DNA of 64,000 nt from Glycera tridactyla (taxonomy: Eukaryota). The notes below the pieces were generated by a model. It was not told where the DNA came from, ran no database searches, and saw only the letters and a list, made by a program, of their open reading frames with translations. Below, one piece after another: positions 3,425 through 47,149 of the stretch; position 1 is the stretch's first letter; each line of letters begins with the position of its first letter. The stretch spans positions 52,080,001 to 52,144,000 of the forward strand of contig OZ286459.1 in the NCBI GenBank assembly GCA_965644265.1, written 5' to 3'. Both the position numbers and the translations under genes were made by a program.

Positions 3425-3427
3425 ATA

Positions 3428-20857: not shown

Positions 20858-20858
20858 A

Positions 20859-20928
<70 letters not shown>
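20858..20928. repeat. (CA)n microsatellite
   Basis: Direct reading. Further (CA)n tracts lie at ~23671-23710 and ~23997-24052. Confidence 0.97.
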
Positions 20929-20974
20929 ACCCACTGTAGGAAATAAAATTTCAGATGTGTGTCATGATGAGCAC

Positions 20975-23994: not shown

Positions 23995-24031
<37 letters not shown>

Positions 24032-24369
24032 ACACACACACACACACACATACATGTAGCTGTGATGTTATGATAGAAATTGAAAAACAAAGAAAAAAAA
24101 TATATTTAGAATTTTTAATATCATCATATATTTTATACAATCAAATATCAAATTCTATGTCGAATATGATGATGAACTTGTTGGGACTCGTCTGCAGAAA
24201 TTGACACATACATCAGGAAAAGACGACCAAGACTGCAGAAACTGTTGGATATTATTACCACAAGACTGTCAGCGGTGCTAGAGTTGATTCGAACACATAT
24301 ATGTACGTACAAAATATTATTGAATCAAATATTAATGCTATTTGCGACAAAGCATATTTGAAATAAGTT

Positions 24370-27340
24370 ATTACCTAACGTTATGTTCTACAAGATCATG
24401 TTTTCTAGATATTGTGAAACACCGGTGAACATTTATGGATACTAGTGCCCAATATATGAGACTGATGCTAGTCTACCAGAAAGAATTTGCTTAGTTCGCA
24501 AGATCGTCGTCCGGTCCTTTTGATCAACGTCCGGTAGTTATTGAGGACCAGAGAGATTTGTGGTATTACTAGTATCTCTGAAAACAGAAGAGATTGAGGA
24601 CCAATCCTTCTGTAACATAGAGAAGGTATTTCGAACCTAGTGCTGGCAAGTGTATGCTAGTTTACAGGACCCGATACCCACTGTGCCGAAAGAGAAGAAC
24701 ACCTTAACACTTTTTGGAGAAGACCTTCTTGTATAACACAGAGATATGGAGAGAAAGAGAGGAACCTTGTCATTTCGTGAATTTATTATCCTCGAATAAT
24801 ATTTCGAATCTAGTGCCGACGAGCGAATGATGCTACAGAGTGAGAACCGCTCCCTCTGTAACAGCGAGAAGGTATTTCGAACCTAGTGTCGGATGCTAGT
24901 CTGCAGGACTTGATGAGAGATGGAGAGAAGAACCATGCCAGTGCATGAGGAATCATGACAGTACATGAACTCAATACCCTAGTGTTGGCAAGACCGACGC
25001 TGGCCCACTCAACATTGCAGACAATATTGTGAAGTACCAGTGAACATTTATGGATAGCCGCAGTACATGGATTTAATACCCTGGAACCTAGTGCACTCAA
25101 AGAGTTTCGACAACATAGCGAGAAAAGGACCCGCGACGGGAAGAAAGTATTTTATATATTATATGTATTCAAATATGGCACAAACTGTGCACAAACATGT
25201 TTTTTTACATTAGACATAACAATATTTTATCTCGAGTGGCAATATTTTATTTTCGCTAGATTGACCTATCGATCAACGCCAGGTGATTATTAAGAAGGAT
25301 GCAAAGTATTACCAGTATTTTTGAAACAGAAGAGAGATGAGACCGCTCCTTCTGTAACACAGAGAAGGTATTTTGAGCCTAGTGTTTGTGATACCGACGC
25401 TGGCCACACATGTAAAAGATTGCGAGAAGGACATGGCATTCCGCCAACACCAGCAAATGATGCTACAGAGTGAGAACCGCTCCTTCTGTAACAGCAAGTA
25501 GGTATTTCGAACCTGATGGTGGCGAAGGAATGACGCCTCTCTACAATATTTCGGATCTAGTGGTGGTGAGCGAATGATGCTACAGAGTGAGAACCGCTCC
25601 CTCTGTAACAGCGAGAAGGTATGTCGAACCTAGTGTCGGATGCTAGTCTGCAGGACCTGATGCCTATTGTGTCAAAGAGAAGGTCTACACTATCACTTTT
25701 GAGACTTCCTCTTTGTACAACACGGCAAGAGATGGAGAGAAGAACCATGCCAGTGCATGTGGAATCATGAAAGTACATGAACTCAATACCCTGGAACCTA
25801 GTGTTGACAAGACCGACGCTGGCCCACTCGACATTGCGCACAATATTGTGAAGTACCAGTGAACATTTATGGATAGACGCAGTACATGGATTTAATACCC
25901 TGGAACCTAGTGCACTCAAAGAGTTTCGACAACATAGCGAGAAAAGGACCCACGACGGGAAGAAAGTATTTTATATATCATGGGTATTCAAATATGGCAC
26001 AAACTGTGCACAAACAAGTTTTTTTACATTAGACATAATAATATTTTATCTCGAGTGGCAATATTTTATTTTCGCTAGATCGACCTATCGATCAACGCCA
26101 GGTGATTATTGAGGAGGATGCAAAGTATTACCAGTATTTTTGAAACAGAAGAGAGATGAGACCGCTCCTTCTGTAACAAAGAGAAGGTATTTCGAGCCTA
26201 GTGTTTGTGATACCGACGCTGGCCACACATGTGAAAGATTGCAAGAAGGACATGGCATTCCGCCAACACCAGCAAATGATGCTACAGAGTGAGAACTGCT
26301 CCTTCTGTAACAGCGAGAAGGTATTTCGAACCTAATGGTGGCGAAGGAATGACGCCTCTCTACAATATTTCGAATCTAGTGGCGGCGAGCGAATGATGCT
26401 ACAGAGTGAGAACCGCTCCCTCTGTAACAGCGAGAAGGTATTTCGAACCTAGTGTCGGATGCTAGTCTGCAGGACCCGATGCCTATTGTGTCAAAGAGAA
26501 GGTCTACACAAACACTTTTGAGACTTCCTCTTTGTACAACACGGCGAGAGATGGAGAGAAGAACCATGCCAGTGCATGAGGAATCATGACAGTACATGAA
26601 CTCAATACCCTGGAACCTAGTGTTGGCAAGACCGACGCTGGCCCACTCAACATTGCAGACAATATTGTGTAGTACCAGTGAACATTTAGGGATAGCCGCA
26701 GTACATGGATTTAATACCCTGGAACCTAGTGCACTCAAAGAGTTTTGACAACATAGCGAGAAAAGGACCCGTGACGGGAAGAAAGTATTTTATATATTAT
26801 ATGTATTCAAATATGGCACAAACTGAGCACAAACAAGTTTTTTTATATTAGACATAACAATATCTTATCTCGAGTGGCAATATTTTATTTTCGCTGGATT
26901 GACCTATCGATCAACGCCAGGTGATTATTAAGAAGGATGCAAAGTATTACCAGTATTTTTGAAACAGAAGAGAGATGAGACCGCTCCTTCTGTAACACAG
27001 AGAAGGTATTTCGAGCCTAGTGTTTGTGATACCGATGCTGGCCACACATGCGAAAGATTGCAAGAAGGACATGGCATTCCGCCAACACCAGCAAATGATG
27101 CTACAGAGTGAGAACCGCTCCTTCTGTAACAGTGAGAAGGTATTTCGAACCTAATGGTGGCGAAGGAATGACGCCTCTCTACAATATTTGGAATCTAGTG
27201 GTGGCGAGCGAATGATGCTACAGAGTGAGAACCGCTCCCTCTGTAACAGTGCTCGAACCTAGTGCTCGTGAGCGAGCGACTGATGCTAGTCACACACAGA
27301 GCTGGAGAGAAGAGAAGAACCATGTCAGTGCATGGATCTA
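24370..27340. repeat. Higher-order tandem array, 819-bp unit (~3.5 copies) built from shorter related subunits
   Basis: Homologous ORF starts at 25100, 25919 and 26738 and ends at 25557, 26376 and 27195 give an exact 819 period. The core ctgtaacagcgagaaggtatttcgaacctagtg recurs within each unit. Confidence 0.92.
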
Positions 27341-28078
27341 ATGCCCTCGTTGTTATGTATATGTATATGTATATATTTATGTGTGTGTTCAGGATCAATG
27401 AAAGTTAGATGTTCTGTCCTTCTGCAGACATCACTTACATGAATCTAGAACACGAGATGATGAAGGAACTTGAAAATGTTGTCGAGTGGAAGTAACTAAT
27501 AGTTTAATCGAAAACCTATCAGTTATCTACACTTGAGGACTATTTCGCTGAAGAAACAAGAATATATAGAGAGAGAGAATAGATGTGAAGAAAAAGAAAT
27601 CAAATGATAGTGTGATTTTGTAAGGAAATACCTAAAGATAGATTTATAGAGAATTTCACAGGTATGATTTTTTCATTTGGATTTCCCCACCCCCTTCTGA
27701 AAACTATTGAGAGTATAGAGAGAGAAGGGGTGATATTACAATTTAAGCTATATCACCCCTTGATGGCAACACTTGAAAGTGAATGACCCACGCCCATCGG
27801 TGGTCACCATCAATAGAAAAACCCTGGACTCCCACCACATCTCACAGACAATATGAACAGAATATAAATAAAATTACATATATATATACAATCAAACATT
27901 CCTCAAACTATATTCGTGCTATAGGAAATACAATCAATAATCAATCCTCAAAACTATATTCATGTTATAAGAAATACAATTAATAAAAAAACATTTCAGC
28001 AGAAAAGGACATTTGCTTGTGACTTACTACCTGAAGAACAATAGAACTACCGAGAAATCAGTTCCAATCATTATCCCA

Positions 28079-28537
28079 TCATTGGTGCATGGTGAGAGAT
28101 GATTGAGTTGTGTTCTTGCACCACAACTCCACCATGAATGGCTCGGGATCTTCTTCCGCGGGCAGTTTTACATCCCACCACGGAGCGTCTCGTTGCATGA
28201 GTACCACATACGGTTGCGATTTTATGCAACTAACATGACGCTCGTAATGGACGGGGATGTATTCTGGGAATAATAGCTGGATTTCCCACTTCGCACGATC
28301 GGCCACCAATTCCTCGCTAGCATTCCTTCGTTCTTCAGGTGTAAGCCACGGGTAGGTACATTCAGTGATACACCAGTCTAGGTCGCTGAGGTCGGTTGCT
28401 TCGCGGGCTTGTTAAACTTGTTCGCACGTAAACAGGGACACGTAACCGACCACTGTCTCGATCGCCGAGGAAACACATTTGGGGACGAATGGTACAAACA
28501 CTCGAGACACGTAAGCAGGAAGGAAGGCCTGAGACAT
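28079..28537 (-). pseudogene. Maverick terminal orphan ORF (152 codons, one internal TAA)
   Basis: ATG at 28537 (MSQAFLPAYV...), TAA at 28412-28414 (codon 42), then in frame with track ORF 28079..28309. It is preceded by TTGTTCTCTTTTTACAG. Confidence 0.55.
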
Positions 28538-28568
28538 TATGAGCTGTAAAAAGAGAACAAATTTTGGC

Positions 28569-29480
28569 TTACAGAACAGTATAACCACTTGTTCTGTCTT
28601 CTTCCAATGAATCCATCAAACAAATATTACGATTTCCTCTATATTCATGGAGGAAATCAAATATTTTTCGTTGATTGAATTCACAGTGAGAACATGGAAG
28701 ACAGCGACAAAGATTTATACATGACTTGCAAGAGTGAATGCAAAAATCCCCAGGCAGGTGTAAAATTCTAGCATTACAAACTAAACAGAGGTTCGTTTCT
28801 CGATTGTGAAACTGTTCAAATGGAAGATGACTGGCATAATAATTGGTATATCTAAAAATAAATTTGACTGGTACTGCACAAATCAATTTGGTTTCTTCGA
28901 AATATGGGAGGTAATGCAATGTATTCAGTGGTGGTTCTAATTTGCGATTAGACGTGCCAGTCAAAAGAATTTTATATGTTTGATTCTGATGAGAGAGTCT
29001 GATGTCTCTCATCAACACTTGCCAACATAAAAAAAAAAGACTGGCCTTCGGTAGAGGACTTTCTTCTACTATAAAATTGAAGTTAGTAGCCAGAACCAAT
29101 CCTTCGATTCTGAGTTTAAACAAGTACAAAAAATATTGGAAGTCGTGCAATTTTCGATTCAATGAAGGAGAATCCACGATGTCATACATCTTGTTCAATG
29201 TACTTAGAATTTCATATATTTGCTGATAGCTGACCCTTGCCCAATGATCAACTTCAGCAATTGATTGGCAATCGTTAACATTTTGGTAGACACAGAAATT
29301 AATGACAAAACTCACACACTGTTCCAGGTCTGTTAATCGGAATGAGAGTAATGATTTCTTCAGCTGGTGGGCGAGGAGACAGATACTGACCTTCAAACAG
29401 ATAGAAAAGTCTTTGCGGGTCGGCATCGAGTACCCGTCTTTGGAGGTAACCAAGATGATTTTGAATGCCAGACAGGTCAA
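28569..29480 (-). CDS. Maverick accessory protein, ~290-300 aa, BC-box-like motif and C-terminal Cys-rich motif (paralog A)
   Basis: Open 303-codon frame (first ATG 29426) containing SLFFLCWQVL and DFCIHSCKSCINLCRCLPCSHC. Its start overlaps the protease stop. Confidence 0.8.
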   Translation of the reverse strand: MTCLAFKIILVTSKDGYSMPTRKDFSICLKVSICLLAHQLKKSLLSFRLTDLEQCVSFVINFCVYQNVNDCQSIAEVDHWARVSYQQIYEILSTLNKMYDIVDSPSLNRKLHDFQYFLYLFKLRIEGLVLATNFNFIVEESPLPKASLFFLCWQVLMRDIRLSHQNQTYKILLTGTSNRKLEPPLNTLHYLPYFEETKLICAVPVKFIFRYTNYYASHLPFEQFHNRETNLCLVCNARILHLPGDFCIHSCKSCINLCRCLPCSHCEFNQRKIFDFLHEYRGNRNICLMDSLEEDRTSGYTVL

Positions 29481-30010
29481 GATTTATTGCCAAATTTCTG
29501 TTCATATTTTTTGTGAAAATATGATCGCAGTTGAGAAATTTGCTTTCTCACAGATAGTATATCAAATTTTTCTAAATTAACATTATAAGTTTGCGAAGTG
29601 AACAACGCCACATACACATCTACATTTTGTTTCTGAGCTAAAATTTCTAATATTTCGCTATGGCTCAATCCTCTAGCGTACTGGGTGATATGATAGACAC
29701 AATAATGTCCACAAACAGAAGAATAAAATTGTTGAAATTGATCAGTACTATAATCGTAGCTGGGTGCTAAGAAGATTTCAAACTCCTCAAATAGTGGAGG
29801 TAAACCATAACTATCAAAATAGAAATTCTGAGAACTATGATCGATGATACAGACAATCCAATGTGTACCCGAGTCACCTGTTTTATCCGTATTGAAAACA
29901 TAAGCCCCGTCCTCACATGCAAGTTCAGCGTCCCGAGGGAATACACCTTTGAAAACACGGGATACTGTACTGTTACTATTGAGCAATGCACTAATTTGTC
30001 TGTTGTTCAT
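29477..30010 (-). CDS. Adenain-type cysteine maturation protease
   Basis: FKGVFPRD, GTHW (His), FDSYG (Asp) and QQFYSSVCGHYC (Gln/Cys). The ORF is intact; likely ATG at 30010. Confidence 0.95.
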   Translation of the reverse strand: MNNRQISALLNSNSTVSRVFKGVFPRDAELACEDGAYVFNTDKTGDSGTHWIVCIIDHSSQNFYFDSYGLPPLFEEFEIFLAPSYDYSTDQFQQFYSSVCGHYCVYHITQYARGLSHSEILEILAQKQNVDVYVALFTSQTYNVNLEKFDILSVRKQISQLRSYFHKKYEQKFGNKS

Positions 30011-30015
30011 TTTTT

Positions 30016-31430
30016 TCAATCATCAATTATGACACCTGTTTTGTCCAATTCCAAAATGTCGTCCATCTCGCAGTAGGCAATCAAGGTAGCACTTGTGGTG
30101 GTGTTAGCTGCACATTTGATTTCGACTGACACGGTTCCCTCGTGGAGAAGATTGAGCGAGCTGCAATTGGGTAATCCAAGATCAAATGCATACAGACACA
30201 TGCAGACACGGTTCCCTCGTGGAGAAGATTGAGCGAGCTGCAATTGGGTAATCCAAGATCAAATGCATACAGACACATGCCGTTGGGGTAAGCACTCGGT
30301 GACATCTTGATGCCTGCATCTTTGTAGAGAATTCCCGTGCATTGCATCAGCGATAAATAAGCTTGCATATAACAGTCTTCGTCGTAATCCATGGACAGAC
30401 ACTGGAAAGGGACGGTCAGCCCATCAACTCTCAACACTAACAAGCTGACTTTGAAATGCTGAAAATTAAATGGAGAATGTTGGAACGAGCCGGAAAAAGC
30501 AGAACTTTCAACGATGCCTAGAACGATTCTTCTAGGGATGATTCCGTTGATCAAATTGGCCTCACTCAAATCACTTGTTCCGCTATTCCTACTATACCAA
30601 CGCACTCTGGTGCGCTTGATTTCTTATAGGTGGGGTTGTGTTTGAAGCTGTTTGGTGAGTGCTTCTAAAACGTGAGAAGATATTTCGCAGTGAGGTACTT
30701 TCAGTTGAGCATCGCTTATTTCTATCTTGAAATTGGTATGACTATCTGATTTGCACATCAGCGAGAAAGCGTTATCGGCACAATGGAGAACGATGAGTAT
30801 CTCTGTGTTGTTAGGTAGGAGTTTATCTTGATTGAACAATTCGTGGTGTATTTGCCCAATTGTTTCAAATGTAGTTGAATATTGAGTTTTTTTGAATCTG
30901 GCCACAGCTCCTTCCCCCGCACCCGGTGATTCCAAAGCAACATCTCTCTCGTCGAAATCGCCAGTATCTTGGTAAAACATACCGGCAGCTAGAGTGTGAT
31001 CTTTTGCATCTGCGCCGTGTGATGGTGGAGCTTCGAAATAAGCTTTGTATGGGTACATGGTTTTGCTCACCCCAATTTGTCGACCATTGACAGCAATTTA
31101 GATGTTCTTGAACTGAGTGGCATGAATGTAACATATGGGGTGAACAAGGGATTGATCTGTCAGTGTAGCATCTGCAGCAGGTGCCGCGATGTCATTTCCG
31201 TTTGTCTTTATGATTTTCATTTCGAGATACAGGACGACATGGCGTAGATCAACAAAATCTGTATCTCCAGAAATGATGCGAAATTGTATGGGGCCTCCTC
31301 TGTCGAGAGACGTCAACGGATGATAATCTCTATAGTGTACTTTCAATATGCTAGTCTGAGTTGGTGGGATGCTGAATAAATTCAACTCGGGTCGGGGACA
31401 TTCTTGCGAACATTTGTGCATGAGACTCAT
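30016..31430 (-). pseudogene. Double-jelly-roll major capsid protein (hexon-like), disrupted
   Basis: ECPRPELNLFSIPPTQTS...GPIQF, MYPYKAYFE, IPRRIVLG...PFNFQHF, YAFDL. One frame runs 31430-30281 with TAA at 31098-31100 and 30624-30626. A 77-bp tandem duplication (30128-30203/30205-30280) frameshifts the C-terminus. Confidence 0.95.
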
Positions 31431-31439
31431 GATGACGCG

Positions 31440-31845
31440 CTAATCCAAGATGTCTTCCACCACGCGTCGCCGTTTTGATCTTCTCGAAGTTTGAGACGGT
31501 TGATTTTTTGCGTTTACGAGTCTGTTGTTTCTTCGAAGTCGTTTTTTTCTTCCTGGTCTTTTGTATTAGGTTGTCCACCGTATCCAGACCTAATTCGATG
31601 GCTCGTCTCGTGATTTTACTGCGCACACCTTGGTTCAGTCCGACTTTCTTGGTGATTTGTCCGAGAAGTTTAGTTGCCTTGGGTTTTATTAGGGGACCTG
31701 CGATGTTCCACATCGTGGACAATATCCTCGACCCGAGTCCGCTTCCTCGCTGGTATAATTCCCCCTGAAAATAGGGAAGAGCATTCCCTTCAGCATAATA
31801 ATTCTGGTAAAAGTTTTTGTCTGGGGTGTAACCACATTGTCTCAT
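31440..31845 (-). pseudogene. pVII/PM-like basic core protein
   Basis: YYAEGNALPYFQGELYQRGSGLG plus a K/R-rich tail. Removing one A from the A6 run (~31504-31509) gives the end RRSKRRRVVEDILD* with its stop at 31440-31442, 9 nt before the MCP ATG. Confidence 0.75.
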
Positions 31846-32632
31846 ATTGCCGTGGGTCTTTGACGAAGGTGTAGTTTCACGATGATTTTTCCAAACTTGA
31901 ATGGGATGATGTCTCCCTGATTGTCCGCAATTTTGATTTTGATGTGTATTACGTAGCTTTGTATTAGCGGTACATAATGGGGACTGTCAAATATCATATT
32001 CTGGTATGACAAGATACCTACAGTGGAATCGAGAGTGACGGTTTTCAATAGAGGTGCATAGACCCCGCCCACCACTGAGTTTTTCACAATGTTCGAGTAG
32101 ATGTATATATTGTGAAGTGAAAGATCTAGGCAGGCCACGTGACCGGCATGGACAGTTGTGTATCGGTGATTTGCAACCCAGCGCGTACGATCAAGATCAT
32201 CATGATGTGTAAATCCAAGTTTTCGATGCAGGGCGGATTTCAACAGGATTTTTTCACCATTATAAACTTTACAACCGACTTTTCTATTGAATTCGTTGAA
32301 AACAAGCCTGCTTCATATCCCCCCCCCCATTTATTCTGATGATATCATTCATCTCGGATAACAGTTTGGGGATGGACTCATAAAATATGAGAATCTAGAG
32401 TTCTTTTCCTTACGCCACGACCTAGAGTGACTGCTATCTCATTTTCCGATTCGGTCACATTATACCAGGTGCGAGGGAAAGCAAATTCGACCAATGCACA
32501 TTCCCACAGCCCATTGGTGAAATCAAGAGTTTCTGGTATGATAGTATGATAATGCCCGATCATGTTTTCGCTGTACTCGTTTGACCTTACATTTGAAGGA
32601 AGGGTGATGTACATATGTTTCAAAGTCGCCAT
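31842..32632 (-). pseudogene. Minor capsid (penton, single jelly-roll), frameshifted
   Basis: MYITLPSN...WECALVEFAFPRTWYN (32378..32632) and IYIYSNIV...YAPLLKTV...FDSPHYVP...IPFKFGKIIVKLHLR (31842..32243). At least two frameshifts lie between ~32290 and 32390, and that interval includes a C10 run. Confidence 0.9.
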
Positions 32633-33174
32633 TTCGCCCATTTCAATCTGCCTTTGCCTGTTTGACTTTCTGATTTCTTTCGAGAACTTTTGCGGGGAAA
32701 CCAACTGGAGGGAACACCAATATCTAGTAATGCCTCCTCAATTCTTTCAGATGCTATAGGCACATCTCGTCCACTCGTGACCACTTTGGTGTTCAACAGA
32801 TATTGTAGTATATCTAAGATGTTGGTGTTCGGTAGTAATTTGTCGTTGAGAACTACTTCATAATTCTCATTCCATCTGATGGACTCTGATGGACTCTGGG
32901 TGACGATTTTGATGATGCTGTCCACCATGGGATGATGATGACTCGGTGTATGAGATAGGATGTCTTCTGCAAATGGTATGGTGTCTGTTGTGGTATGGGG
33001 CTGTTTGAGACGGTCTTCTCTCGTTCTTTTCCTCATCAGCTTTTGTTGATATAACATCATTTTTTTACTGGATGGTAATTTCTCATCGAGCAGTATGTCT
33101 TCTTCCGTTTCTTTGGTGAAATTACATTTTTCAAACACCGATAGTGGGATGATGACACTTTCGGCAAAGCTCAT
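32620..33174 (-). CDS. Conserved Maverick hypothetical protein (WNxxxEV...NIxD...L..IGVP motif, PW/PZ-type)
   Basis: Intact 184-aa ORF with IRWNENYEVVLNDKLLPNTNILDIL and ALLDIGVPSSW. Its ATG overlaps the upstream stop (ATGA). Confidence 0.75.
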   Translation of the reverse strand: MSFAESVIIPLSVFEKCNFTKETEEDILLDEKLPSSKKMMLYQQKLMRKRTREDRLKQPHTTTDTIPFAEDILSHTPSHHHPMVDSIIKIVTQSPSESIRWNENYEVVLNDKLLPNTNILDILQYLLNTKVVTSGRDVPIASERIEEALLDIGVPSSWFPRKSSRKKSESQTGKGRLKWAKWRL

Positions 33175-33470
33175 CTTCGCAATGTGTGCTTCAACATGCG
33201 TTTCACTAGGCGAATTTTTTTCTTTATCAGCAATCTCCTCATACGTGAAGAAATGTTTTCATCGATCACAGCCGGCAATGTAGTCCGAGATTGTTTGAGC
33301 TGGCGTATTAGACTCTTTGGTATGGGAACATTCCCAATTAGGATGTTATATATACACACGCACAAGGCCTCAATATGTTCTTTGGATCCACACTCGATCA
33401 AGTCTTTAGTTTTCTGTACAGATTTGGTAACGTGGACTAAAGCAACAAATGGACGTGTACACAAGTTCAT
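33171..33470 (-). CDS. Small basic pX-like protein, paralog lacking the QxGG tail
   Basis: 99 aa with LIECGSKEHIEALCVCIYNILIGNVPI, which is similar to the N-half of 35168..35512. ATGA overlaps occur at both ends. Confidence 0.7.
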   Translation of the reverse strand: MNLCTRPFVALVHVTKSVQKTKDLIECGSKEHIEALCVCIYNILIGNVPIPKSLIRQLKQSRTTLPAVIDENISSRMRRLLIKKKIRLVKRMLKHTLRR

Positions 33471-34122
33471 TGTAGGGGGCTATGAACTAACTGATACTGA
33501 GGGTTGAATATATCCGAACGAAAACGTGCCTCGGCACAATGTCTTGTGTACCATCGATAAATAACATCCCGTGTGGCTTATTGGTGGCGGCATTGTATAT
33601 ATGCATGAAAGTTTTGATGTCCTGCGGCATGATTTTCAAGCCCAGCAAATATGCCACGCTCCTATCCAGGGGGTTGTTGAAGAGAACCCAATAGTGTGCT
33701 GATTTAGTGATGGTTTTCCGCTGTTTGCCCTCCGAAAATATATTTTGCGTGATGAGAATCACTCCGACTTTTCTATGGTGTGATTGACGCGTGAATAATT
33801 TGGCAACGGCTTGGGAAGACCCCGCTTCGGCATACAAATCGTCCAGCACGATGAGTGTCCCAAAAACGCGGTATTCCTCAAAACTCGTGGGGAGACCTTT
33901 CACCGTTTCAATAAATGAACCGTAGGCTGCATGCAGGTAGACAATGTTGTCGCTCATTTCTCCATAAAACCAGACTACTTTTTTCAGAGGAGTGTCGATC
34001 AACCTCGGAGCATGTTCTATGAGCTCGCATACCCAAGTACTCTTGCCAGATTGGCTCGGTCCACCAATGACTAGAGAAAATGGGAATTTGAGTTGGGCGT
34101 CAAAGACGTTGAAATTACTCAT
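33467..34122 (-). pseudogene. A32/FtsK-family DNA packaging ATPase, frameshift near the 3' end
   Basis: Walker A GPSQSGKST, Walker B IVLDD, SHHRKVGVILITQN. ATG at 34122 overlaps the integrase stop. A frameshift near 33540 hides the ending EARFRSDIFNPQYQLVHSPLQ* whose TGA overlaps the next ATG. Confidence 0.93.
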
Positions 34123-35083
34123 CGACTCGGCTGAGTTCTGCAGCATAAAATGGCCCCACAATTGTATCACCTGTGGGATCGATCAGTTCATAGGTGAAAG
34201 GATTTGTCGGTAGAACTTTCAGAATTCGAAACACTTCTTTGGTGAATGTCTGAGTGTATCCACGAGTGAAAACATAGCGATATCTGGCAATTCTCACGCG
34301 ATCTCCGGCTTTGTACTTGGAAGTGTTTAAATCCACCAAGCGAGGATGTTTGCCGTAATGCTTTTCAAAAATCTGGTGCTGGTTCTTTTTGGTAACTTTT
34401 GCGGGGGCAATCTCAATGCTCCGATGTTTTCTGGAATTATAGGTGTCAACAATTTTATCCAGCACTCTCCAATATGATGTGGTGTCTTTGGCAGTGAAGT
34501 ATTTATACATGATATTTTTCAGTGTGCGGTTCAATCTTTCAACTAATGCAGCTTTTTCCACGTTCAAAGTTGAGTAATGTACAATGCCTTTCTTCTGAAG
34601 GAGAGACTTGAACAGTTTGTTGTAAAATTCTCGACCTCGATCCGTCTGTATTTTAACAGGTTTTTGTTTGCTTTTTGCCAAAAGTTTCTTGAATCCATGC
34701 ACTACATCACTGGCACTTTTTATTCTGAGAGGAACAACGTGAGCTAACCTTGACAAAACATCGATTTTCACGAGCAAAAATCGATAATTCCTATTGGTTT
34801 TAGCTAGCGTACTCACATCAACCAAGTCCAATTGCCACAGGTAGTTCACATGTTTAGCATAAGTTTGTCTGCGTGGGAATTTCTTGATGGCGGGTCGATG
34901 CAGGGTGTAGGAGGGTTCACTCTCTAGGAATTCTTGAATTTCCCGTCGAGTCAAGCTTTTGAAACGTTTCTTCCCCCACCGGTAAAGGCGATCTGGTGAA
35001 GAAAAAGCAGCAGCATTTCCAATTTGATGGTACAGCGTCCTCAGGTGTATCCTCTTCTTGTCGCTCAAAACCATCTGGTGCAT
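34115..35083 (-). CDS. Retroviral-like (RVE, DDE) integrase
   Basis: WQLDLVD, IQTDRGREF, VERLNRTLK and SH3-like YKAGDRVRI. The 322-aa ORF is intact with no C-terminal chromodomain. Confidence 0.97.
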   Translation of the reverse strand: MHQMVLSDKKRIHLRTLYHQIGNAAAFSSPDRLYRWGKKRFKSLTRREIQEFLESEPSYTLHRPAIKKFPRRQTYAKHVNYLWQLDLVDVSTLAKTNRNYRFLLVKIDVLSRLAHVVPLRIKSASDVVHGFKKLLAKSKQKPVKIQTDRGREFYNKLFKSLLQKKGIVHYSTLNVEKAALVERLNRTLKNIMYKYFTAKDTTSYWRVLDKIVDTYNSRKHRSIEIAPAKVTKKNQHQIFEKHYGKHPRLVDLNTSKYKAGDRVRIARYRYVFTRGYTQTFTKEVFRILKVLPTNPFTYELIDPTGDTIVGPFYAAELSRVDE

Positions 35084-35167
35084 CTAATGCAGAATTGCAA
35101 CAGGCATATTTGCAAGAAACGTTCAATTGGATAGCCTCTTTCAAACAACAACAGCAATCTTTCGCAT

Positions 35168-35512
35168 TCATTTTCGTGGCCGTTTTTTACGTTTGCGATT
35201 CTTCTTAGCAAATGCACCTGCGATGGCTTTTATGGCTAGAGGGGCTAATGCTCCCACGATTGCACCGATGAATCCACCACTCTGTAATCGAGCCTGTTTC
35301 TCTCTCAAGTTACGTGGGCACTTTCTCGTCTGCTTGAAATATTTCTTCAGTCTATTCCGATTGCGAGATATATCACCTTTGAAAATTTTTTCTGCACAGT
35401 TCCAAATAAAATTGATGAATTTATCGTCTGTTTCATTGACAAACTCCTTCATTCGTTTCGGTGAAGATTTTGATAGGGCGTGAATGACGCGGGCATTGGT
35501 GTTGAGTGACAT
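35168..35512 (-). CDS. pX/protein-VI-like virion protein with protease site and amphipathic helix
   Basis: 114 aa: LQSGG followed by FIGAIVGALAPLAIKAIAGAF and a basic tail KKNRKRKKRPRK. Confidence 0.8.
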   Translation of the reverse strand: MSLNTNARVIHALSKSSPKRMKEFVNETDDKFINFIWNCAEKIFKGDISRNRNRLKKYFKQTRKCPRNLREKQARLQSGGFIGAIVGALAPLAIKAIAGAFAKKNRKRKKRPRK

Positions 35513-36127
35513 TTACACTTTGTTGATGTCTTCAGGCCAAATGATGGGCACAAAGACGACTCGATTTTTCAGAGTGTCATTGACTGCTTGAATGATCGGG
35601 GGGATTTTCAGGCGTCGGGTATATTGGCGCTGAGCTCTCAGTTTGGCGGTGGTTGCAGCAGTAGCAGTAGCACTAGTTACTCCCGACGAAGTTGTTATAG
35701 CTGTAATTTCTGATGAAGAGGATTCCGCTGTTGCGTTGCTACTCTTTCTAGCTTCTGAAGATGTGCTTGGTTTAGGTGAAGCAGTTTTCCTCATCTTCTT
35801 TGCTGGAGGTTTTATGATTTCTTCTACTTCTTCTTCCGGCGGGGAGCTATCGCTATCGCTCAGTTCTTTCATTTCCACCACGTCTTCTTCCTCCTCTTCT
35901 TCACTGCTGGAGTGAGAACGTTTCTTGATGTTCTTGCGTTCTTTAAGGTATTTCCTATGGCAAGCATTACACCTACGCGAGTTCAGTGTATAGTACTTGC
36001 TCGGCATCAGTCTTTTACATCGAATGCATTCTTGACCTTTAGCTTGGCACTTGGTACAATAAGCCTTTCCCGACACTAGTGGGTAGTTGGGGTCGGCACA
36101 CCAGATGCAACAATAGGGTGGACTCAT
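35513..36127 (-). CDS. Zn-finger (4 x CxxC) protein with acidic tract and NLS; putative regulator
   Basis: CIWC, CTKC, CIRC, CNAC, then EEEEEED, PPAKKMRK and a Ser/Thr-rich region. ATGA overlap with dNK. Confidence 0.75.
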   Translation of the reverse strand: MSPPYCCIWCADPNYPLVSGKAYCTKCQAKGQECIRCKRLMPSKYYTLNSRRCNACHRKYLKERKNIKKRSHSSSEEEEEEDVVEMKELSDSDSSPPEEEVEEIIKPPAKKMRKTASPKPSTSSEARKSSNATAESSSSEITAITTSSGVTSATATAATTAKLRAQRQYTRRLKIPPIIQAVNDTLKNRVVFVPIIWPEDINKV

Positions 36128-36753
36128 TTTCGGGTGATGAACTGCACGACGTTCTCCAAAAGTTCTTCAAGATCTTGAAAATGATCCGATAGTTTCACAG
36201 GTGTCTCGACAGCGTCCAAGTATTCCCTGTAAGAAGTAGAAAGATTTTCAAGATATTGTCTCTTCACAAATTCTACTTCACCGGCTCGATCACGATGTTC
36301 AATGCGTTTTAGGCAAGTGTCGATGTCGGTAGACAGGTAATATATGCCATCCACATCCAAGTCGAGATTTGCGAAACACTCTTGCAATACGTCCAACAGT
36401 AAATCGCGGGCAAAAGTCGACAAATACCCTTGGCAATATAGGGTGTTGGTGAAAATAATAGGAGAAGTGTGAAACCGCTCGGTCACAATTGTCTGTTCGC
36501 TGCTCCAGAGTTCAGCTTGCACATGATAGTATTGAGCTAGAGTTCTACAAATATGCAACTGGGAACAAACAGCATACTTCTTCGGGTTTTCTTGCAGAAG
36601 GGAGAATACTTGGTGATCGCGGAAATGTTGAAAAAGGTGTGCCGGCTCTGTAATAAACCTGTACTGAGGATCGTGCTTAAGAGCGTTTTTCAAACGTGCC
36701 AGAAGGTAACTTTCGCCGGCTCCAATCAATCCTTCTATGACGTACACCTTCAT
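36124..36753 (-). CDS. Deoxynucleoside kinase (dNK family); P-loop Lys replaced by Glu
   Basis: VIEGLIGAGESY (canonical IEGxIGAGKST), TERF, YLSTDIDTCLKRIEHRDRAGE (lid) and YLENL. Confidence 0.88.
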   Translation of the reverse strand: MKVYVIEGLIGAGESYLLARLKNALKHDPQYRFITEPAHLFQHFRDHQVFSLLQENPKKYAVCSQLHICRTLAQYYHVQAELWSSEQTIVTERFHTSPIIFTNTLYCQGYLSTFARDLLLDVLQECFANLDLDVDGIYYLSTDIDTCLKRIEHRDRAGEVEFVKRQYLENLSTSYREYLDAVETPVKLSDHFQDLEELLENVVQFITRK

Positions 36754-36756
36754 TTA

Positions 36757-37174
36757 TCAGTCCAACGATCCGAATCCATCACAACCTCTTTCGCTTTTAT
36801 TCAATGACCTTTTCAATGAAAAATGAACTTTTTTCTGATAGGGTTTGATGATTAGTTGCGCAAATTTCCTACCAGCACTGACAGTAGTAATTGCCGTTGA
36901 AGACAGGTTATGTAGAATAATGCATATCTCACCTCGATAATCGGAATCTATGATTCCGCCAACAACGACCAACTGTTGCAATGCAAAACTCGATTTCAAG
37001 TTTACCATAAAATCCTTCGGAAATAGCAAGAGCAACACCAGTTCTCAAACAACGAGTTTTGTTCAGCTTTAGACTTGTGGTCTCTATACAATAAAAATCA
37101 AATCCCGCCAAATTTTCAGTCACTCGAGTTGGCACTTTAGCCTTTGGATGATTAAGTACAATGTCCACCTCCAT
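36757..37174 (-). pseudogene. dut: Trimeric dUTPase, frameshifted in motif II
   Basis: AGFDF (motif I), TGVALAISEGFYGKL, GIIDSDYRGEI (III), FAQLII (IV) and RGCDGFGS (V), split between ORFs 36929..37174 and 36757..37038 at ~36995. Confidence 0.93.
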
Positions 37175-37467
37175 TAATCGCTTTTGCTAGTGTCGGAGCT
37201 GAGGCTTGAAGCAGACGAGAAGAGTGCGGCATCGTCTTTCTTCGATTTTTTGACAGTGGATTTGGTTTTCTTGGCTTTCTTCATGAGGCGTTTACTTTGC
37301 TTCAGTACCTTGGGCATCTTCTCTTTCAATTTCAAAAGTTCCTTGTGGCTGAGCGAAATAGACTTGTTCCTAATGCTGTCTCCGAAATGGTACCATACTT
37401 GATTTCGCCACAAGGCTTGCGTCATGGTCCTATTACGCCCAAGTTTCAGCGTGTATTGGTTGGCCAT
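37174..37467 (-). CDS. PC4/Sub1-like ssDNA-binding protein
   Basis: LGRNRTMTQALWRNQVWYHF...KSISLSHKELLKLKEKM aligns by eye with the PC4 core (IGKMRYVSV...KGISL..EQW..LKE). Likely ATG 37467. Confidence 0.65.
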   Translation of the reverse strand: MANQYTLKLGRNRTMTQALWRNQVWYHFGDSIRNKSISLSHKELLKLKEKMPKVLKQSKRLMKKAKKTKSTVKKSKKDDAALFSSASSLSSDTSKSD

Positions 37468-40400
37468 GGTGTGTCCTTGTGCCAATACGGAAGCGTTGTT
37501 ACACCATCACCTAGTATGAAACGTTTATCATCATGCGGGTTGAGACATGTTTTACATGAGTAGACGGTGTAGACTTTGTGACCGTAGCTGCGAATACTAT
37601 GTATCCCGTGGGATAAATAGCGTTTGTTCACCAGACATCACCTATACCGTGCATGAGTAGTGAATGCCAGTGCATGTTTTTTAACACCTTTAGCATGTTT
37701 TTTAGCAGTTTGAGCATATTTGACTGAATACACTTTCGATTTCAATCCTACAAATTCCTCAGGAATTTTAGGGGGTGAAAACTCGTCTTGAAACAAACCA
37801 GGAACTTTAGCATTAACACCACAATAAAGTGGGTGGTCTTTGGGGAAATTTGATGTATCTAAATGAGACCAGAGATCTTTGAGATCTTTGTACATATCAG
37901 GTGTTTCAACATGATAGAGAAATGAATCAGTATCGGTGAAACAAAGTGAAACTTTGGACCCAAATTTTGGTAGTACAACTTCGTAATGAAATTTGTACAT
38001 GTGAAGTTTAGAGAGTTCTAAAATACTATAGCCTATTGCCACTGGACGATTCAACACGAGATTTTTCTGAGCAAGATGGACACCGACTAAATTCTGATTG
38101 AATACCCGAACCCTCTTCAATTCGGGTTGTCGAACTAGTTTATCAAATACTTCCGCATGACACACCAATTTGATCTTCTGCTGCTTTTTCACATTCTCGA
38201 TGAATTTTCCAAAAGTAGCATTAGTAGCAAGCTTATAATAATTTTTCTCAAACATATTTGTAGCAGCACTCCGTAGCAAAGCATTGAAATCAACAAAATC
38301 TTTCAAAAATCGACTCTGTTTCAACTTCAAAACCTTGTTGATTTTCGAGTCCCATCTTCAAATAAAATTGAAGATTGAGATAGTGTACTACATAATTCTT
38401 TTTGTCCATCACATTTGGAATCAATTTAGCCAATTTGCTGTTGCCCATTTTCAAACTCCTCGCCATTTTGAGACTGCAAGACGATTTCATATCTTTACGC
38501 ACTACAATTTTTTCGGGAGCTAGCGGATATCGAGCATGAGCATCGTGCAGATGAGTTGGATAGTGAAGGTCCACGTCGAGTATGAAACCAACTCTATCAT
38601 TTTCACTCAATATTTCAACATCGAACTCCCGAATTTCATCAGAGGATAACCAAGAAAAACCGCCGACGGGCATCGGATAGTGTGCCATGGTGTATGAATA
38701 CAACCCATTCGCATCAACAAACCACAGGTACGATTCTGGTAAATTTGGATCGAAAGTTTCTGGCAAATATCTGTTATTAGCGGTCGCCAGCCTTTTCGAA
38801 ACTACGCTGATTCCACCTCGAATGCCAGATTCTATCATGTGATATTGTTCCATGTCACTCAAACATTCTATTGCCACACCGGTGGATTTCAAACATGCGT
38901 CTAACGCCAAACCAGGAGTGCTCAGATATTTAGCCGGATCTAAACTGTACGCCTCCATGCTAACATGCCGATGATTTTCAAAAACGTCGGCTAGTAATGC
39001 CACATCGGATTTGAGATAAACATCATGAAAGTCACCTAACGTCTTACAATCAAAATGCCGGTAGATGTCCCAAGCATATGCATAATCTGCATCAGAAATG
39101 TGTTGACCAGTGAGAAGATTATATAAATCTTCTTTGGGTGGCAAACCTACTTCATCGAATTGTGAATGATGTTTGATGTAGTTATATGGATATATTCCTT
39201 TGCGTAAAACATGTTCTAGATTATTTGAACCTACCAAATTCCGAGTATGGACAAATTTGTCGACACCTCGAGTGAGCAAATTTTTCACGTGGGTGTCCAA
39301 AGAGGCCGGCAGGAACTCGAAAGTGTCTTTGAACCAAAAGTCGTTCAACACAAAGCCCATGTATCTCTCCATGTTTTTGTGGATGATCCTACAAGACTTA
39401 CTACTGTACAGAGGTGTCTTATGTAAATAAGACAATAGGAAATGCGAATCATAATTAGTGAGTGCATGAAAAAAAACAGGGATTTTTCCATAGACACTCA
39501 CCACGTTCATGTTACAATGCATGCACGCAACACCGCGATAGTTACTTTCTAACGTGGGATCGCCAAAGTGCGCATGATCTCGACATTTCTGTGAAGGATG
39601 ATCAGGGATTTTCTTGCAATACTGGCAACGAGTTTCGAACTGGAAATTTGCTTCGTCTTCCTCTCTCATTTTTAATGGTTGTGCCAGGCGCCTTTTGATG
39701 AATCTGATTTCCATCCGTTCATGCACCAGACATTCAAAGAAATGTTTCATGACATTCTTTCCGCGATAGCATACCACGGCGGTGGTATAATTGCTGTCGG
39801 TGCACACACAAATTGTGGCAAACCCCGTTGGAATGTGTTGAGAATGTAGAATGGTTTTGGGGCCTTTAGACCGATTTATGACCTTATTTCGCGTCTCCAA
39901 GTCGGCATAGATGCAAAATTCGGCAGGAATGGTATTTCCAACATTCTCAAACTGTAGTCGATAGCCCGCATCGGGAATTCGGTATGAGGACTGGGGGTTT
40001 GAGCCTGTGTTAAAATTTTTGGCAATGTGGTTGAAGTAAATTTCCAGACCACGAAATTTGGAAAGACATTTTGAACAGACATATTGTTTATTGCCAGTCG
40101 TCTGTTCAACTAGCCGAGACAAATCTCTAATACAGAAATAATGATCATCATGCAATAGCAAATTGCATATGTGTGTCACCTGATTCTCATTTCCAGAATG
40201 ATAGATTTTTCGCATTTTATCTGTGTAATCGAACACATTAATGCTCAAGTGTGGGTTGTCTTTCTCAAAATCTGGTATCGATTCGATGGCAACAGGAAAA
40301 TGAAGATTGGACACGTCAAGTTTTTGAATGGTGGCTAAGTACTTGTGGTGTCGAGAAGGATGAGCAGCTCGACAGAAATTGTTTATAGCCGCGGCAATGC

Positions 40401-40913
40401 TATACAGGAAACAGCGTTCGTCTGTATTGTTGATACTCAAAATAGCCTGCCTTCTTTTCAAACTTGGTGGTAACAGCACACCAAAACACCCACCGGAAAG
40501 TGTTTTCACAACTCTAACAACAATCAATTGTATATTGATAATTTTATCGATCATCCATCCACTACCTTCACTCACATAACTATCGAGATGAAGTTGGATT
40601 TCTTCAAATGCATCATCGACCGACTGGTTGATAGTACGATTAGTACACACATAGCGCATACTACTCAAAAATTGAGCCATTTGTTTTATGAGCTGATCCG
40701 ACTCGATGTCGAGCCTTTTCATTCTGATGGTGCATCTTACCTGGAATTTAAATGTTGAAAGTATTTTGCGTTGAATATATGTGTCAGTCTTCAAGCTATT
40801 TTTGGACCAAACACCGAACTGGAGACATCCAAATCACGATGAATTTTAGCTTTTGGTTTGAAGTTGAAGACAGCATGTCTATCTTTCATACGTAATAGCC
40901 TATCAATCTTCAT
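37446..40913 (-). pseudogene. polB: Protein-primed family B DNA polymerase
   Basis: ExoI IYADLET, ExoII FHALTNYD, ExoIII YLKSDV; PolA DANGLY, PolB KLATNATFGK, PolC TDTDS; C-terminal DDKRFIL. Frameshift at ~38343, TGA at 37638-37640, and a probable further frameshift at ~40800-40835 after ATG 40913. Confidence 0.96.
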
Positions 40914-41828
40914 CTTGATCGAATGAACACGGGTTATGCAAAGCACTATATCTGTCAGTTAAAGAAGCTAAACGAACATAATAACAGTAAGGATGAGATA
41001 ACCTACACGGGGACAGGTTGACAAATTTCTCAAGTGCTCCGATTTCAGGCAGACAGGCTTGACATGGTTTGCAATAACAAAATGCCTGACATTTTGAAGT
41101 ACAATGTAAACAAAAATCTCTATACAAAGATGTGGATCTTAATTCACAACTGAAATATTTTGGCCTACCAAAATAATCTACCAAATGGTTCTCGCTCCAT
41201 TCATCTATGATGATTTGATATGGACAGGTTGAAATGACTGAATCCAATGATATGAAAGGTACTTTTTTCAAAACAGAAATAGGTGGATCCGAATGCCGAT
41301 CAATCTCGGTTTTCAATACTACCTTCAAGAAACGGTCCGTATCGTACTCATCCAAAGTGGTCAAAAATATTTCTAAAGCACAACTTTTCAGAGACGGTAC
41401 AGTTTTACTTGGAATAGTATTCAAGGAAATATGCTCAAACGCTTTTCTCCCTACAATTCTCAAAGCTTTGTGAAACTGTTGATCACTGAGGGTGTACAGT
41501 ATTTGAGGCCACTCGGGTTCGAATCCCCAGCTAAGTAATGTGTTGATATCTGAAAAACTGATGTAACAGTCCATTTGGCCCACCCACAAGCTCCACCACT
41601 GGAGAATATCGTAAATCTAAACTGATTTTTTTGAAGTAATTCATATGAAGCGAGTGAGTGTTTCATGCAATATGCTCTTAGTGGGTTCAAATAGATACGT
41701 GCGAAACAATTGAATAGTTTTTGTTCGTCATACTCTAACACGTGCTTCAACAGGTGAGGTAATCTAGTTCTAATACTATACTGATATGTGTGCTGTTCCA
41801 TCACAAATAGAATTTCATTTGGAAGCAT
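40903..41828 (-). pseudogene. Maverick accessory protein paralog B (BC-box-like plus Cys-rich), split by frameshift and TAG
   Basis: ORFs 41460..41849 and 40903..41589 joined near an A7 run (~41626-41632), with TAG at 41617-41619. It shares motifs with 28569..29480. Confidence 0.7.
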
Positions 41829-42312
41829 TACATATTTCTGAGATGCCAAAACTGTGTGATACTTTCGAATTAGGTCAGAAACCTCGAATAAGGTTGACCT
41901 ATTTCATCACTACAAACCCTCCCCTCCCTGATTCAGAAAAAGAACATTATGTGTTTCATCTAGAAGCATATAATGTCCCTACACAAAAGTTTATAGATGA
42001 GCAGGAGACGATGTGGCGATCTGAAACAGAACATACGAATCATATAACATACCACCCTACCACTAGAATTGAAAAACCAAAAACTAACTAACAGACTGAA
42101 ATTAAATTCAATAGTCTCTCAAAAATGGAACTACAGTCAGACCTGCCCCCTCCTCACAACAGGTGTATGTTAAATCGAACTCTGGTGGAATGGATACAAT
42201 ATGGATGCTCAAGAAAAGTTCTTACTTTGAGCAGGTTTGACTGTTATACTGAATTAGCTTATGCATCATTAATTGTTTCTGTCGATGATGTCAAATTGAA
42301 TATCACATAGTG

Positions 42313-42344
<32 letters not shown>

Positions 42345-43859
42345 CATATAAGACCAACATTCATATTTCCAATCAGCAACGACTAACAGATCAAATTAAT
42401 TGTTTTACACCAAATAGGGGTATGACATGTGAACACAACATCTACAAATCACTAGCAAACTTTAGAGTGAAAATTGAAGTCCATCAACCAATGATAATCT
42501 AAAATAACATTATAGTTTCACTTTTATTGCTAAAGTCAAAAAGAGGTAAATGACACCATCCATTTTAATTGAACTGATCTGAAATGAACTACAGTATCAG
42601 ATAATTACCTCGAGTAGACACCTTTCAAATGTTGCACTGTGAGAAAACCTAGGTATGATGATGATGCTTGTTCTAGATGGGGTAGTTTACAACAACCTAA
42701 AAGATTAAATGAAGACTGGTTAGTCGTATAAACCCCTCCCCAGAGTTGAGGGGAAGTGATATTGTTGACACTCTTTTGAGCTAACTGATTTGCTTATAAT
42801 AACAGAAGGGAGGAGGCAGTGGATTTCCAGTGTAGACAAGTTGATTTTGGAATTCATCAGTCTGAGGGGGGGCCAGTCGGTACTTTTTTTCGCAACCTGA
42901 CTCGAAGACAAATTCAAACAAACACACACTCAAAATAAACTCGTCTAGTATCCAAGCAGGAACAAACATACACAGAACAGGGTATACTGGTATCAAAGAG
43001 AGCACACATGCATAAAACTTAATCCAAAAAAACTAAATGAATAGCAAGCTGACAGACTCCATAGCATTTTTGGTTAAAGATCCTTGTTAGGACCTAATTG
43101 CTAGATGCCAGAATGTCAAAGTCATCCATTGTGATGAATACTGGTTTGCAGCTGGTATTCATGATGATGTTAAACAAAATTCACACACACACACCCCTGA
43201 ATTAACACATTCGACATTGAAACAAGCTCAGAAAGAGACATACAGGGGTACACAAGCATTTGCATGGGTCAAAAACATAATCCAAAAGCAAAGCGTATAC
43301 ACAAGATGAATAAATCATTTCTTAAAAGTCAAAATGTCTGAAGCCAGAATGGCTACCTCCAAAGTTAAAGACAGAACTCTCAAGATTATATGAAGTATTC
43401 TTATTTGATGATTATCTAATCTCAAATAATTAACTCTTGATAGACAACATTTCATGAGAGTAATTGTTATAACTTACTACTTAATTTAAAACTTGCAACA
43501 GCTATGACAACCAATACCATGCAAACAAAATACATCACACTAACATCAACACCAGTTGTAAAAGGATGATGTCACTCACCATCAAATACTAATAAGCAAA
43601 CGTGCAGAGAATCTTGCAGATTCAAACCGACCTCATACTACCAAGCTCTGAAATCATAAGACCCAACAAGCGACTACCTAAATTGTCAAAATAAAATCTT
43701 CCTGAAAAAGCATCATCGGCAATCGTCACCTTCAAAACAAAATGCAACACATGTGGATGCCGACCTTGATAATATCATAATGAAATGTCAAACCTCCCAC
43801 ATTAATTGATTTTTACTGAAAGACAATCAACTGGTATTAGCATTGAAAATAAATCTCAA

Positions 43860-45200
43860 TGACATTGCTGAGCAAACATCCATCAGGCATTGGAAAACAT
43901 CAGCTGGAGCATGAAAGAGACAAGTTCATGTAGGTCATGTCAACTGGGCTCTGATGCACAAAGTCGAACTGCCTGCATAAGAAGAGCAGGCAAGGTTTTT
44001 TCGAACATTCCAAAATTGCCAATTCAATTTCAAACTCGAATCAAATTAAATTCATCATGGACAGTAACAGGCAGAAATTGACACTCTCTAATGCAGGTGA
44101 TTGACTGAAGATCACACTTCCTCCCATCAACATAGACCGGAATATCTCAACTGGTTATGCTAGTAGTGATAGGGGCAGTGTTTTCAATCAATCTCAACAG
44201 AGAGAGTACTGAAAAAATATCCATCATCAGCCGAAAAGAGCCAAGTCCATGTAGCTCCCGAGCATGTGGGCTATGATACACTAAGTCAAACCGGGCCCCG
44301 CATGAGAAGAGCAAGCAAGTGACTTCAATCAATCTCAACACAGAGAGAGTGCTGAGAAAATATCCACGAAAGAGCCAAGTTCATGTAGGTCACGAGCATG
44401 TTGGGTATGATACACTAAGTCAAACCGGGCCCGCATGAGAAGAACAAGCAAGTGACTTCAATCAATCTCAATACCGAGAGAGTGCTGAGAAAATATCCAC
44501 GAAAGAGCCAAGTCCATGTAGGTCACGAGCATGTGGGGTATGATACACTAAGTCAAACTGGGCCCGCATGAGAAGAGCAAACAAGTGACTTCAATCAATC
44601 TCAACACAGAGAGAGTGCTGAGAAAATATCCTTCGAAAGAGCCAAGTCCATGCAGGTCATGTCAACTGGGCTCTGATGCACAAAGTCAAACTGAGAAGAG
44701 AGAGCAGGCGAGGTTTTTCGAACATTTCAAAATTGCCAATTTAATTTCAAACTCGAATCAAATTAAATTCATTAAGGGTGGAAATTCATCTGAGGTGGCC
44801 TCCATGGACAGTGACAGGCAGAAATTGTCACTCTCCGATGCAGGTGATTGACTGAAGATCACACCCCCTCCCACTAATATAGACCGGAATATGCCAAGTT
44901 CCAACTGGTAGTGATCATCAGCTGGGGGCTACAAAAGAGCCGAGTCCATGTAGGCCACAAGTATGAAAAACATCAAGTCAGCTGGGCTATGATGGACTGA
45001 CCTGCATGAGGAGAGCAAGCAAGACTTTCAAACATTTAATAAAAATTGCCAATTTAATTTCAAATTTGAATCAATTTAGGAGATTTATCTGAGAGAAGTG
45101 GTCTCTATAGCCACTAACAACCAGAAGTTGACACTCACCAATGTAGGTGACTGACTGAAATCAACACCAAGTTCATCACCATGTTCAAAACCAAGTCCAC
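43860..45200. repeat. Tandem array: 133-bp unit (~3.5 copies) nested in a ~730-bp duplication
   Basis: gtgacttcaatcaatctcaa at 44319, 44452 and 44585. Segment 43915-44145 recurs at ~44635-44890, with a degenerate third copy to ~45160. Confidence 0.88.
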
Positions 45201-47140: not shown

Positions 47141-47149
47141 ATCCTCATC

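Follow-up and report, generated by a model that had tools for sequence, protein, structure and literature searches.

What kind of element carries a long array of virus-like genes on one strand in the genome of Glycera tridactyla, and how could genes packed so tightly be expressed? The question is raised by a stretch of 64,000 nucleotides (assembly GCA_965644265.1, contig OZ286459.1, positions 52,080,001 to 52,144,000 of the forward strand), here called the window, whose own coordinates are used below. The initial annotation placed a near-complete endogenous Maverick/adintovirus at 27,717–42,325, and all the genes that it named do lie on the minus strand in the order that it gave. Its limits and its claim of completeness do not hold. 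Comparison with sibling copies shows that the element spans 19,951 to about 47,166, of which the first drawing took only the middle part; one end is lost, 10 of the 19 genes present are broken, and the family is twice the size drawn. Taken as a whole, the probable reading is that the window holds a decayed copy of a 31–36 kb Maverick family, that this family makes leader-spliced RNA, likely from one promoter for the whole gene block, and that a deoxynucleoside kinase (dNK) and a dUTPase likely supply it with clean deoxynucleoside triphosphates (dNTPs). The spliced leader, missed at first, is a more unusual feature than the gene set.

The window copy opens with an AGTAGT terminus at 19,951. Its surviving terminal inverted repeat (TIR), the 3' end of the element, occupies 19,951–20,934 and matches both TIRs of the siblings, with 97% identity to an older one. 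Next to it lies a 3' arm (20,935–27,700; about 10.7 kb in a sibling), which is mostly non-coding and has internal repeats including three 819-bp units; such long tandem units differ between subfamilies, and a 175-aa open reading frame (ORF) of the siblings was not found in the arm of the window copy. On the other side, sibling homology stops at 47,166 beside a fragment of a long interspersed nuclear element (LINE). LINE reverse-transcriptase fragments flank the copy at 19,159–19,950 and 47,108–47,722, and the truncation falls at the second. About 6 kb is missing there, comprising the promoter region, a 234-aa gene, leader exons 1 and 2 and the second TIR, and the lost end was not found, including in the 10 kb past the window edge. 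A search for TIRs up to 15 kb from the integrase gave none; the real ends lie 17–20 kb out. When 21 sibling proteins were searched with tblastn, 19 were found, nine as open frames and ten with stops or frameshifts (PolB, major capsid protein, minor capsid protein, pVII-like protein, ATPase, dUTPase, paralogs A and B, a 160-aa orphan and a 580-aa ORF). In a tree of 17 copies, the window copy clusters with two other older copies and has an end branch of 0.023, versus 0.001–0.003 in the youngest. It is a decayed, promoter-less, one-ended member of a recently mobile Maverick family and, having lost its promoter end, is likely to be silent.

The family itself is better preserved elsewhere. An integrase search of the 2.04-Gb host genome gave at least about 16 loci at 88–96% identity and more than 100 matches near 40%. 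The sample used throughout consists of 17 copies, the window copy included; further partial copies in the genome were left out. Twelve of the 17 have both ends, with AGTAGT termini and inverted repeats of about 1.2 kb, and ten of these measure 31–36 kb; the remaining two have 21 and 53 kb. Target duplications of 6 bp are perfect in 10 of the 12 and match at five of six positions in the other two. The two TIRs of a copy are 93–99.8% identical, and in six copies 99.2–99.8%, two of these six being one duplicated insertion. The family is young and recently mobile. Intact siblings, which the initial annotation proposed to seek, turned up in part: young copies exist, but all 21 frames are kept to at least 90% of their length in only two of the 17, one of which is the reference by construction. 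Siblings carry three further ORFs, of 580, 234 and 175 aa, and a block of 18 abutting co-oriented genes, in which 13 of the 17 junctions overlap, six of them by 4 nt. Two side observations belong here. About 18 kb of inserted DNA in its zinc-finger region brings one young copy to 53 kb. The duplicated insertion has one and the same target duplication at both of its occurrences, which belong to a large inverted duplication (99.9%) close to the end of a contig, either a host duplication or an assembly artefact.

Identity as a Maverick/Polinton is established by PolB, integrase, ATPase, protease, major capsid protein, TIRs, (AGT)2 ends and the 6-bp duplications in siblings. The protein-primed PolB gene (37,446–40,913), broken here, matches PF03175 (E = 4e-19), and in a sibling it has Exo I and Pol A, B and C motifs, an HNH-like insert and, at the N terminus, a domain resembling OTU (vOTU), with Cys and His motifs of the expected pattern at 164–168 and 256–261. 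The integrase (34,115–35,083) is an open frame and matches PF00665 (rve; E = 3e-11). These two, with the dNK (2e-27) and the dUTPase, exceed the Pfam cut-offs, but the A32-type packaging ATPase (33,467–34,122, frameshifted near its end) and the adenain-like protease (29,477–30,019, open frame; Peptidase_C5, E = 8e-4) stay below the curated ones; this part of the predicted gene set is upheld by clear homologues (E 1e-19 to 1e-46) that occupy matching places in the genome's other Maverick families. The major capsid gene (30,016–31,430) is broken by two stops and has a 77-bp tandem duplication at 30,128–30,280. Its sibling protein gives an Atlas feature score of 0.98 to double-jelly-roll (DJR)-like clusters, in which PF21738 occurs in 15–30% of the members; a single-sequence structure model reached a pLDDT of 32, and peptide patterns retrieved no relatives from IMG/VR. 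The minor capsid (penton-like) gene (31,842–32,641), also broken, has no Pfam match but a positional homologue in four other families. No PDB sequence match was found for the major capsid protein, its four-row profile, the minor capsid protein or the profile of the paralogs described below. The label adintovirus fails on one feature. The integrase has no Chromo domain match in this family or in two related lineages of the genome, and by the integrase chromodomain criterion in the available text of PMC11071296 the family would not be counted as an adintovirus.

How such a gene block is transcribed can be approached from public sequencing runs. Five (X1–X5) cover part of the window. X1–X4, from one study, are available as contigs only, which drop rare forms, and their RNA status was guessed by the tool, no run being recorded as RNA; X5 is of unknown kind and from another study. 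Over the promoter arm of a sibling, covered by X1, X2, X4 and X5, the contigs contain four joints in X1, three in X2, two in X4 and none in X5, which behaves as a DNA-like run, since its contigs run through the introns that X1, X2 and X4 skip. The joints define five distinct introns (687, 700, 887, 2,554 and 4,880 nt), all five reading GT...AG on the coding strand, with pyrimidine tracts. They build a leader in which an upstream exon is followed by ATG-free exons of 42, 68 and 92 nt, the last of them spliced to an acceptor that precedes paralog B by 205 nt; the fifth junction connects exon 3 with the end of the 580-aa gene. Exon 1 belongs to the element and not to host DNA, its position being 4.1 kb inward from the end, and a TATA-like box stands 107 nt above the first donor, its exact pattern occurring in 7 of the 17 copies. 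In the window, the remnants of this arrangement are the 3' part of the 580-aa ORF (46,000–47,167), frameshifted and cut off where sibling homology ends, a 133-bp tandem array within leader intron 2 (44,235–44,691), leader exon 3 (43,580–43,647; 68 nt and ATG-free in the sibling), leader exon 4 (42,609–42,696; likewise, 92 nt) and the last splice acceptor seen (41,991–42,019), about 200 nt ahead of paralog B. The window itself has two joints in X1 and none in X2, X3 or X5. Of 113 splice dinucleotides mapped in the 17 copies, 111 are canonical. The initial annotation also proposed a search for transcripts, and it is borne out as far as intron-skipping contigs in three probable RNA runs of one study can do so: the family's RNA has short non-coding exons, all of the coding strand, joined by splicing.

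From these junctions a scheme of expression can be proposed. Transcription would start at the TATA-like box, about 4 kb inside one end, and a single promoter would serve the whole block. The 234-aa and 580-aa genes would be optional exons within leader intron 2, like the adenovirus i-leader, and the 18 downstream genes would be reached by further choice of 3' splice sites, by stop-start reinitiation on long RNAs, or by both. The remaining steps would follow the class: integration by the RVE integrase, for which the 6-bp duplications are the observed trace, and protein-primed replication and a virion stage as established or proposed for Mavericks.

Several observations weigh against the single promoter and the role given to the leader. 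Seven short upstream ORFs lie between the last acceptor and paralog B, and the leader is thus not a clean 5' untranslated region. There is no excess of strong acceptors ahead of gene starts (4/21 vs 27/223, p 0.27), and in the contigs no leader-to-gene junction occurs beyond paralog B, only one downstream acceptor being seen. Exons 1, 3 and 4 are no better kept than the introns (0.84–0.95 and 0.89–0.96 in older copies), and the junctions, coming from contigs of three runs of a single study, give no start site, strand or level. The missing junctions, the lack of acceptor enrichment and the upstream ATGs would all suit several internal promoters, with the spliced exons serving only the first genes (234-aa, 580-aa and paralog B) or a regulatory non-coding RNA, and gene-specific expression clusters among coral polintovirus genes (section 9 of PMC11131425) point the same way. 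This arrangement nevertheless seems unlikely, as the genes abut or overlap and leave no room for promoters between them, a single X1 contig extends over 9.3 kb, from the PC4-like gene through the last orphan, with no splice joint, though it is no proof of a single transcript, and AATAAA signals on the coding strand are few (10 in 36 kb). Still less credence can be given to host-driven or cryptic transcription of one insertion, by read-through or in the manner of a piRNA precursor, in which the splice sites would have no viral role: the restriction to one study, the unremarkable conservation of the exons and the low depth of the spliced contigs (2–4.5) would fit it, but it is at odds with five introns that all follow the coding strand and have strong sites, with the absence of ATG from three internal exons, with a first exon that the element itself contains, closely below the TATA-like box, and with the preservation of nearly all splice sites. 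Two readings of the locus itself are ruled out, namely separate insertions of some of the genes, as the initial annotation had feared, since window copy and siblings are colinear across the whole gene block at 91–94% identity, and capture of a Maverick by a larger transposon, since the flanks end in Maverick termini with target duplications.

With leader splicing from one promoter as the preferred reading, the next question is what the nucleotide enzymes contribute. The dNK (36,124–36,753) is an open frame with an altered P-loop in the window copy, the dUTPase (36,757–37,174) is frameshifted, and both follow a small PC4-like protein (37,174–37,467, open frame). In the sibling, the dNK retains the P-loop and the EP, ER and lid residues known from solved kinases, and the dUTPase its five motifs. 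The PC4 assignment is supported by a homologue in another lineage (E = 4e-10) rather than by its own Pfam match, which is weak (0.003). Between a young copy and three older ones, dN/dS was 0.12–0.20 for dNK, 0.13–0.31 for dUTPase, 0.04–0.23 for the PC4-like gene and 0.21–0.25 for the paralogs, with all upper bounds below 0.8; it was 0.18–0.19 for the 160-aa orphan, 0.29–0.44 for the 580-aa ORF and 0.12 for the 234-aa ORF. Control values from introns were 0.41–1.27, every interval spanning 1. The three pairs share one young copy and are hence non-independent. Both enzymes, real by their Pfam matches as first claimed, are cargo of a lineage and under purifying selection. No close host gene was found for either, in a search that can miss short exons. 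Only two relatives of the dNK reach E<=1e-20 among 567 candidates, and the dUTPase has generic matches of about 40% to phages.

This cargo is placed in a wider frame by four further Maverick families in the genome, each represented by one locus. Two of them are related lineages, with PolB 34% and major capsid protein 35–38% identical to the window family, and they encode dNKs at 28–31% and dUTPases at 29–31% identity. They share the order PolB, dNK, zinc finger, integrase, ATPase, capsids and protease, with other genes between. The first of the two, here the second lineage, measures about 34 kb, has AGTAGT ends, a 6-bp duplication, the same order, a dNK and two tandem dUTPases at its far end; by eye, a further ORF behind its PolB resembles a paralog of the minor capsid gene. 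The third lineage has a dNK and one dUTPase, an LTR retrotransposon within its capsid gene and, by its dUTPase, at least six near-identical copies. The other two are small families of about 14–17 kb in which the integrase chromodomain is present and neither dNK nor dUTPase was found. One has all core genes on one strand and a 1,744-aa PolB carrying C2H2 fingers; the other has a clear PC4 gene. As the kinase and the dUTPase occur together in three lineages that split deeply, the nucleotide toolset of larger DNA viruses is present in some animal Mavericks.

In function, the dNK would salvage nucleosides and the dUTPase would remove dUTP, so as to provide clean dNTPs for the element's own PolB and let it replicate a large genome when the cell is not in S phase. 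Some independence from host nucleotide pools, as initially suggested, may be inferred from the sequences. That the two enzymes are passengers instead, or serve another purpose such as protection from uracil-based host editing or a non-enzymatic role, and do not feed replication, is rather unlikely. Small families in the same genome do spread with neither gene, and the dUTPase is placed differently in the three lineages and doubled in one, and may therefore have been gained more than once. Purifying selection with intact motifs, the position of both genes directly behind PolB and PC4, and the failure to find a close host gene argue for a part in replication.

Towards the two ends of the block stand the paralogs A (28,569–29,505) and B (40,903–41,801), both frameshifted here, whose relatedness was correctly recognized at the outset (24% identity, E = 8e-17). 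They are Cys-rich proteins of about 300 aa with nine matches among 1.84 billion representatives. All nine aligned rows (paralogs A and B and seven of the nine matches) have a BC-box-like motif, modelled as a helix in paralog A (pLDDT 69, pTM 0.76), followed by LxxP in eight of the nine and, in the longer rows, a Cys-rich tail, as in paralog A. Atlas features place SOCS-box clusters on top (0.88), as a lead only. The paralogs would then recruit host Elongin BC-cullin ligases, which is possible, if somewhat less than an even chance. The motif is loose, its BC part arising somewhere in 29–69% of shuffles, and the second motif is LxPP-like, not the Cul5 box LP-phi-P of the definition in the available part of PMC4812663. 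No Pfam match was obtained for the paralogs, and the model of paralog A had no match at E<=0.001 in PDB or BFVD (best Z 4.1 by VIA), which is no proof of a new fold.

The remaining genes of the window copy complete the block. The 160-aa orphan (28,061–28,537) is broken by two stops and has a homologue in one other lineage (E = 5e-35). Further genes encode a basic pVII-like core protein (31,440–31,845), frameshifted, a 183-aa conserved Maverick protein (32,620–33,174, open frame) and a 99-aa basic protein (33,171–33,470). The last is a distant paralog of a 114-aa basic protein with a hydrophobic tail (35,168–35,512), both matching one ORF in other families, although direct alignment of the two gives no match. 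An 84-aa Cys-rich ORF (34,917–35,171) is a doubtful gene, because it overlaps the integrase and has no purifying signal. The zinc-finger protein (35,513–36,127) is an open frame with homologues in two other lineages. The names pX, PW/PZ, penton and pVII are putative labels, used on the basis of position and homology to other Maverick families of the genome; the 183-aa protein is presumably PZ-like and the 114-aa protein pX-like. Elsewhere in the window, inspection by eye gave gag and protease-like ORFs of a long terminal repeat (LTR) retrotransposon on the minus strand at 1,039–3,443 and two SGNH/GDSL-hydrolase-like ORFs at 58,081–58,572 and 60,446–61,336, beside a 241-bp tandem array. The mitochondrial COX1 of the host reads by the invertebrate mitochondrial code (table 5) and appears similar to that of annelids.

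Compared with known systems, the family is closest in core to the vertebrate Mavericks as described in the available text of PMC8097293, with which it shares pPolB, RVE integrase, ATPase, protease, two capsid genes, (AGT)2 termini, TIRs, the 6-bp duplication and purifying selection. Intact elements there measure 12.7–24.6 kb, with TIRs of 46–1,447 bp and genes called intronless; the family differs in its 31–36 kb, its dNK, dUTPase, PC4-like and paralog genes and its spliced non-coding leader. Genes on one strand occur in the Xenopus elements of that paper too, as in one small family of the present genome. Adintoviruses, in the parts of PMC8502044 and PMC11071296 that concern them, are alike in an OTU-bearing PolB, integrase, adenain, FtsK-type ATPase, hexon and penton-like genes and accessory genes upstream of PolB, and Fig. 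S2 of the former labels dUTPase and SSDBP in Alpha maps, with genomes of up to about 20 kb on the scale of the figure; they differ in the chromodomain, which is called a distinctive adintovirus feature in the passages of PMC11071296. The text and readable supplement of PMC8502044 contain no nucleoside kinase, and the adintovirus passages of both papers describe no splicing. Kinase-like and dUTPase-like genes appear in the bidna-type parvoviruses of PMC11071296. Sections 8 and 9 of PMC11131425 report expressed coral elements and mention neither dUTPase nor splicing, and the accessible portions of bioRxiv 2023.08.22.554363 and bioRxiv 2026.10.13.758929 contain no dUTPase or kinase cargo. HNH inserts in PolB are already known in this literature.

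A widely described gene order would have lowered the novelty of the element. Single-strand layout and dUTPase, taken alone, do have precedents, but the mapped splice junctions are new here. Searches by title and abstract, with Repbase and subscription journals outside their range, gave no description of splicing, a leader or polycistronic RNA in Mavericks, and none of a kinase and dUTPase together. Expression of the tightly packed Maverick genes is undescribed in the open literature searched, and young copies, RNA and mapped junctions make it a directly testable question.

For paralogs A and B, the comparison is with adenovirus E4orf6 and HIV Vif, which the part of PMC4812663 on the SOCS box lists as viral BC-box proteins. 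A candidate BC-box helix in the paralogs would be the common trait, but they have no Pfam, PDB or fold match and no canonical Cul5 box. The leader finds its nearest likeness in the adenovirus major late unit, where, according to the available text of PMC5429599, leader exons of 41, 72 and 75–90 nt occur with a coding i-leader between leaders 2 and 3. Both have short non-coding exons before a long co-oriented array and, between the second and third leader exons, a coding segment that is presumably optional in the Glycera family too. In that family, however, replication and integration genes share the array, upstream ATGs follow the last acceptor, and the contigs bring out neither a choice among 3' acceptors nor families of poly(A) sites. 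Convergence would be as likely as descent to account for the resemblance. Mavericks have been proposed as ancestors of adenoviruses (PMC11161782). A Maverick clade of about 35 kb with the size and logic of adenovirus, combining one promoter, a leader of several exons and an optional one that codes, nucleotide enzymes for resting cells and two BC-box cullin hijackers, is a doubtful extension of these analogies; if true, it would offer a living model for the origin of adenovirus-type late transcription from a polinton ancestor.

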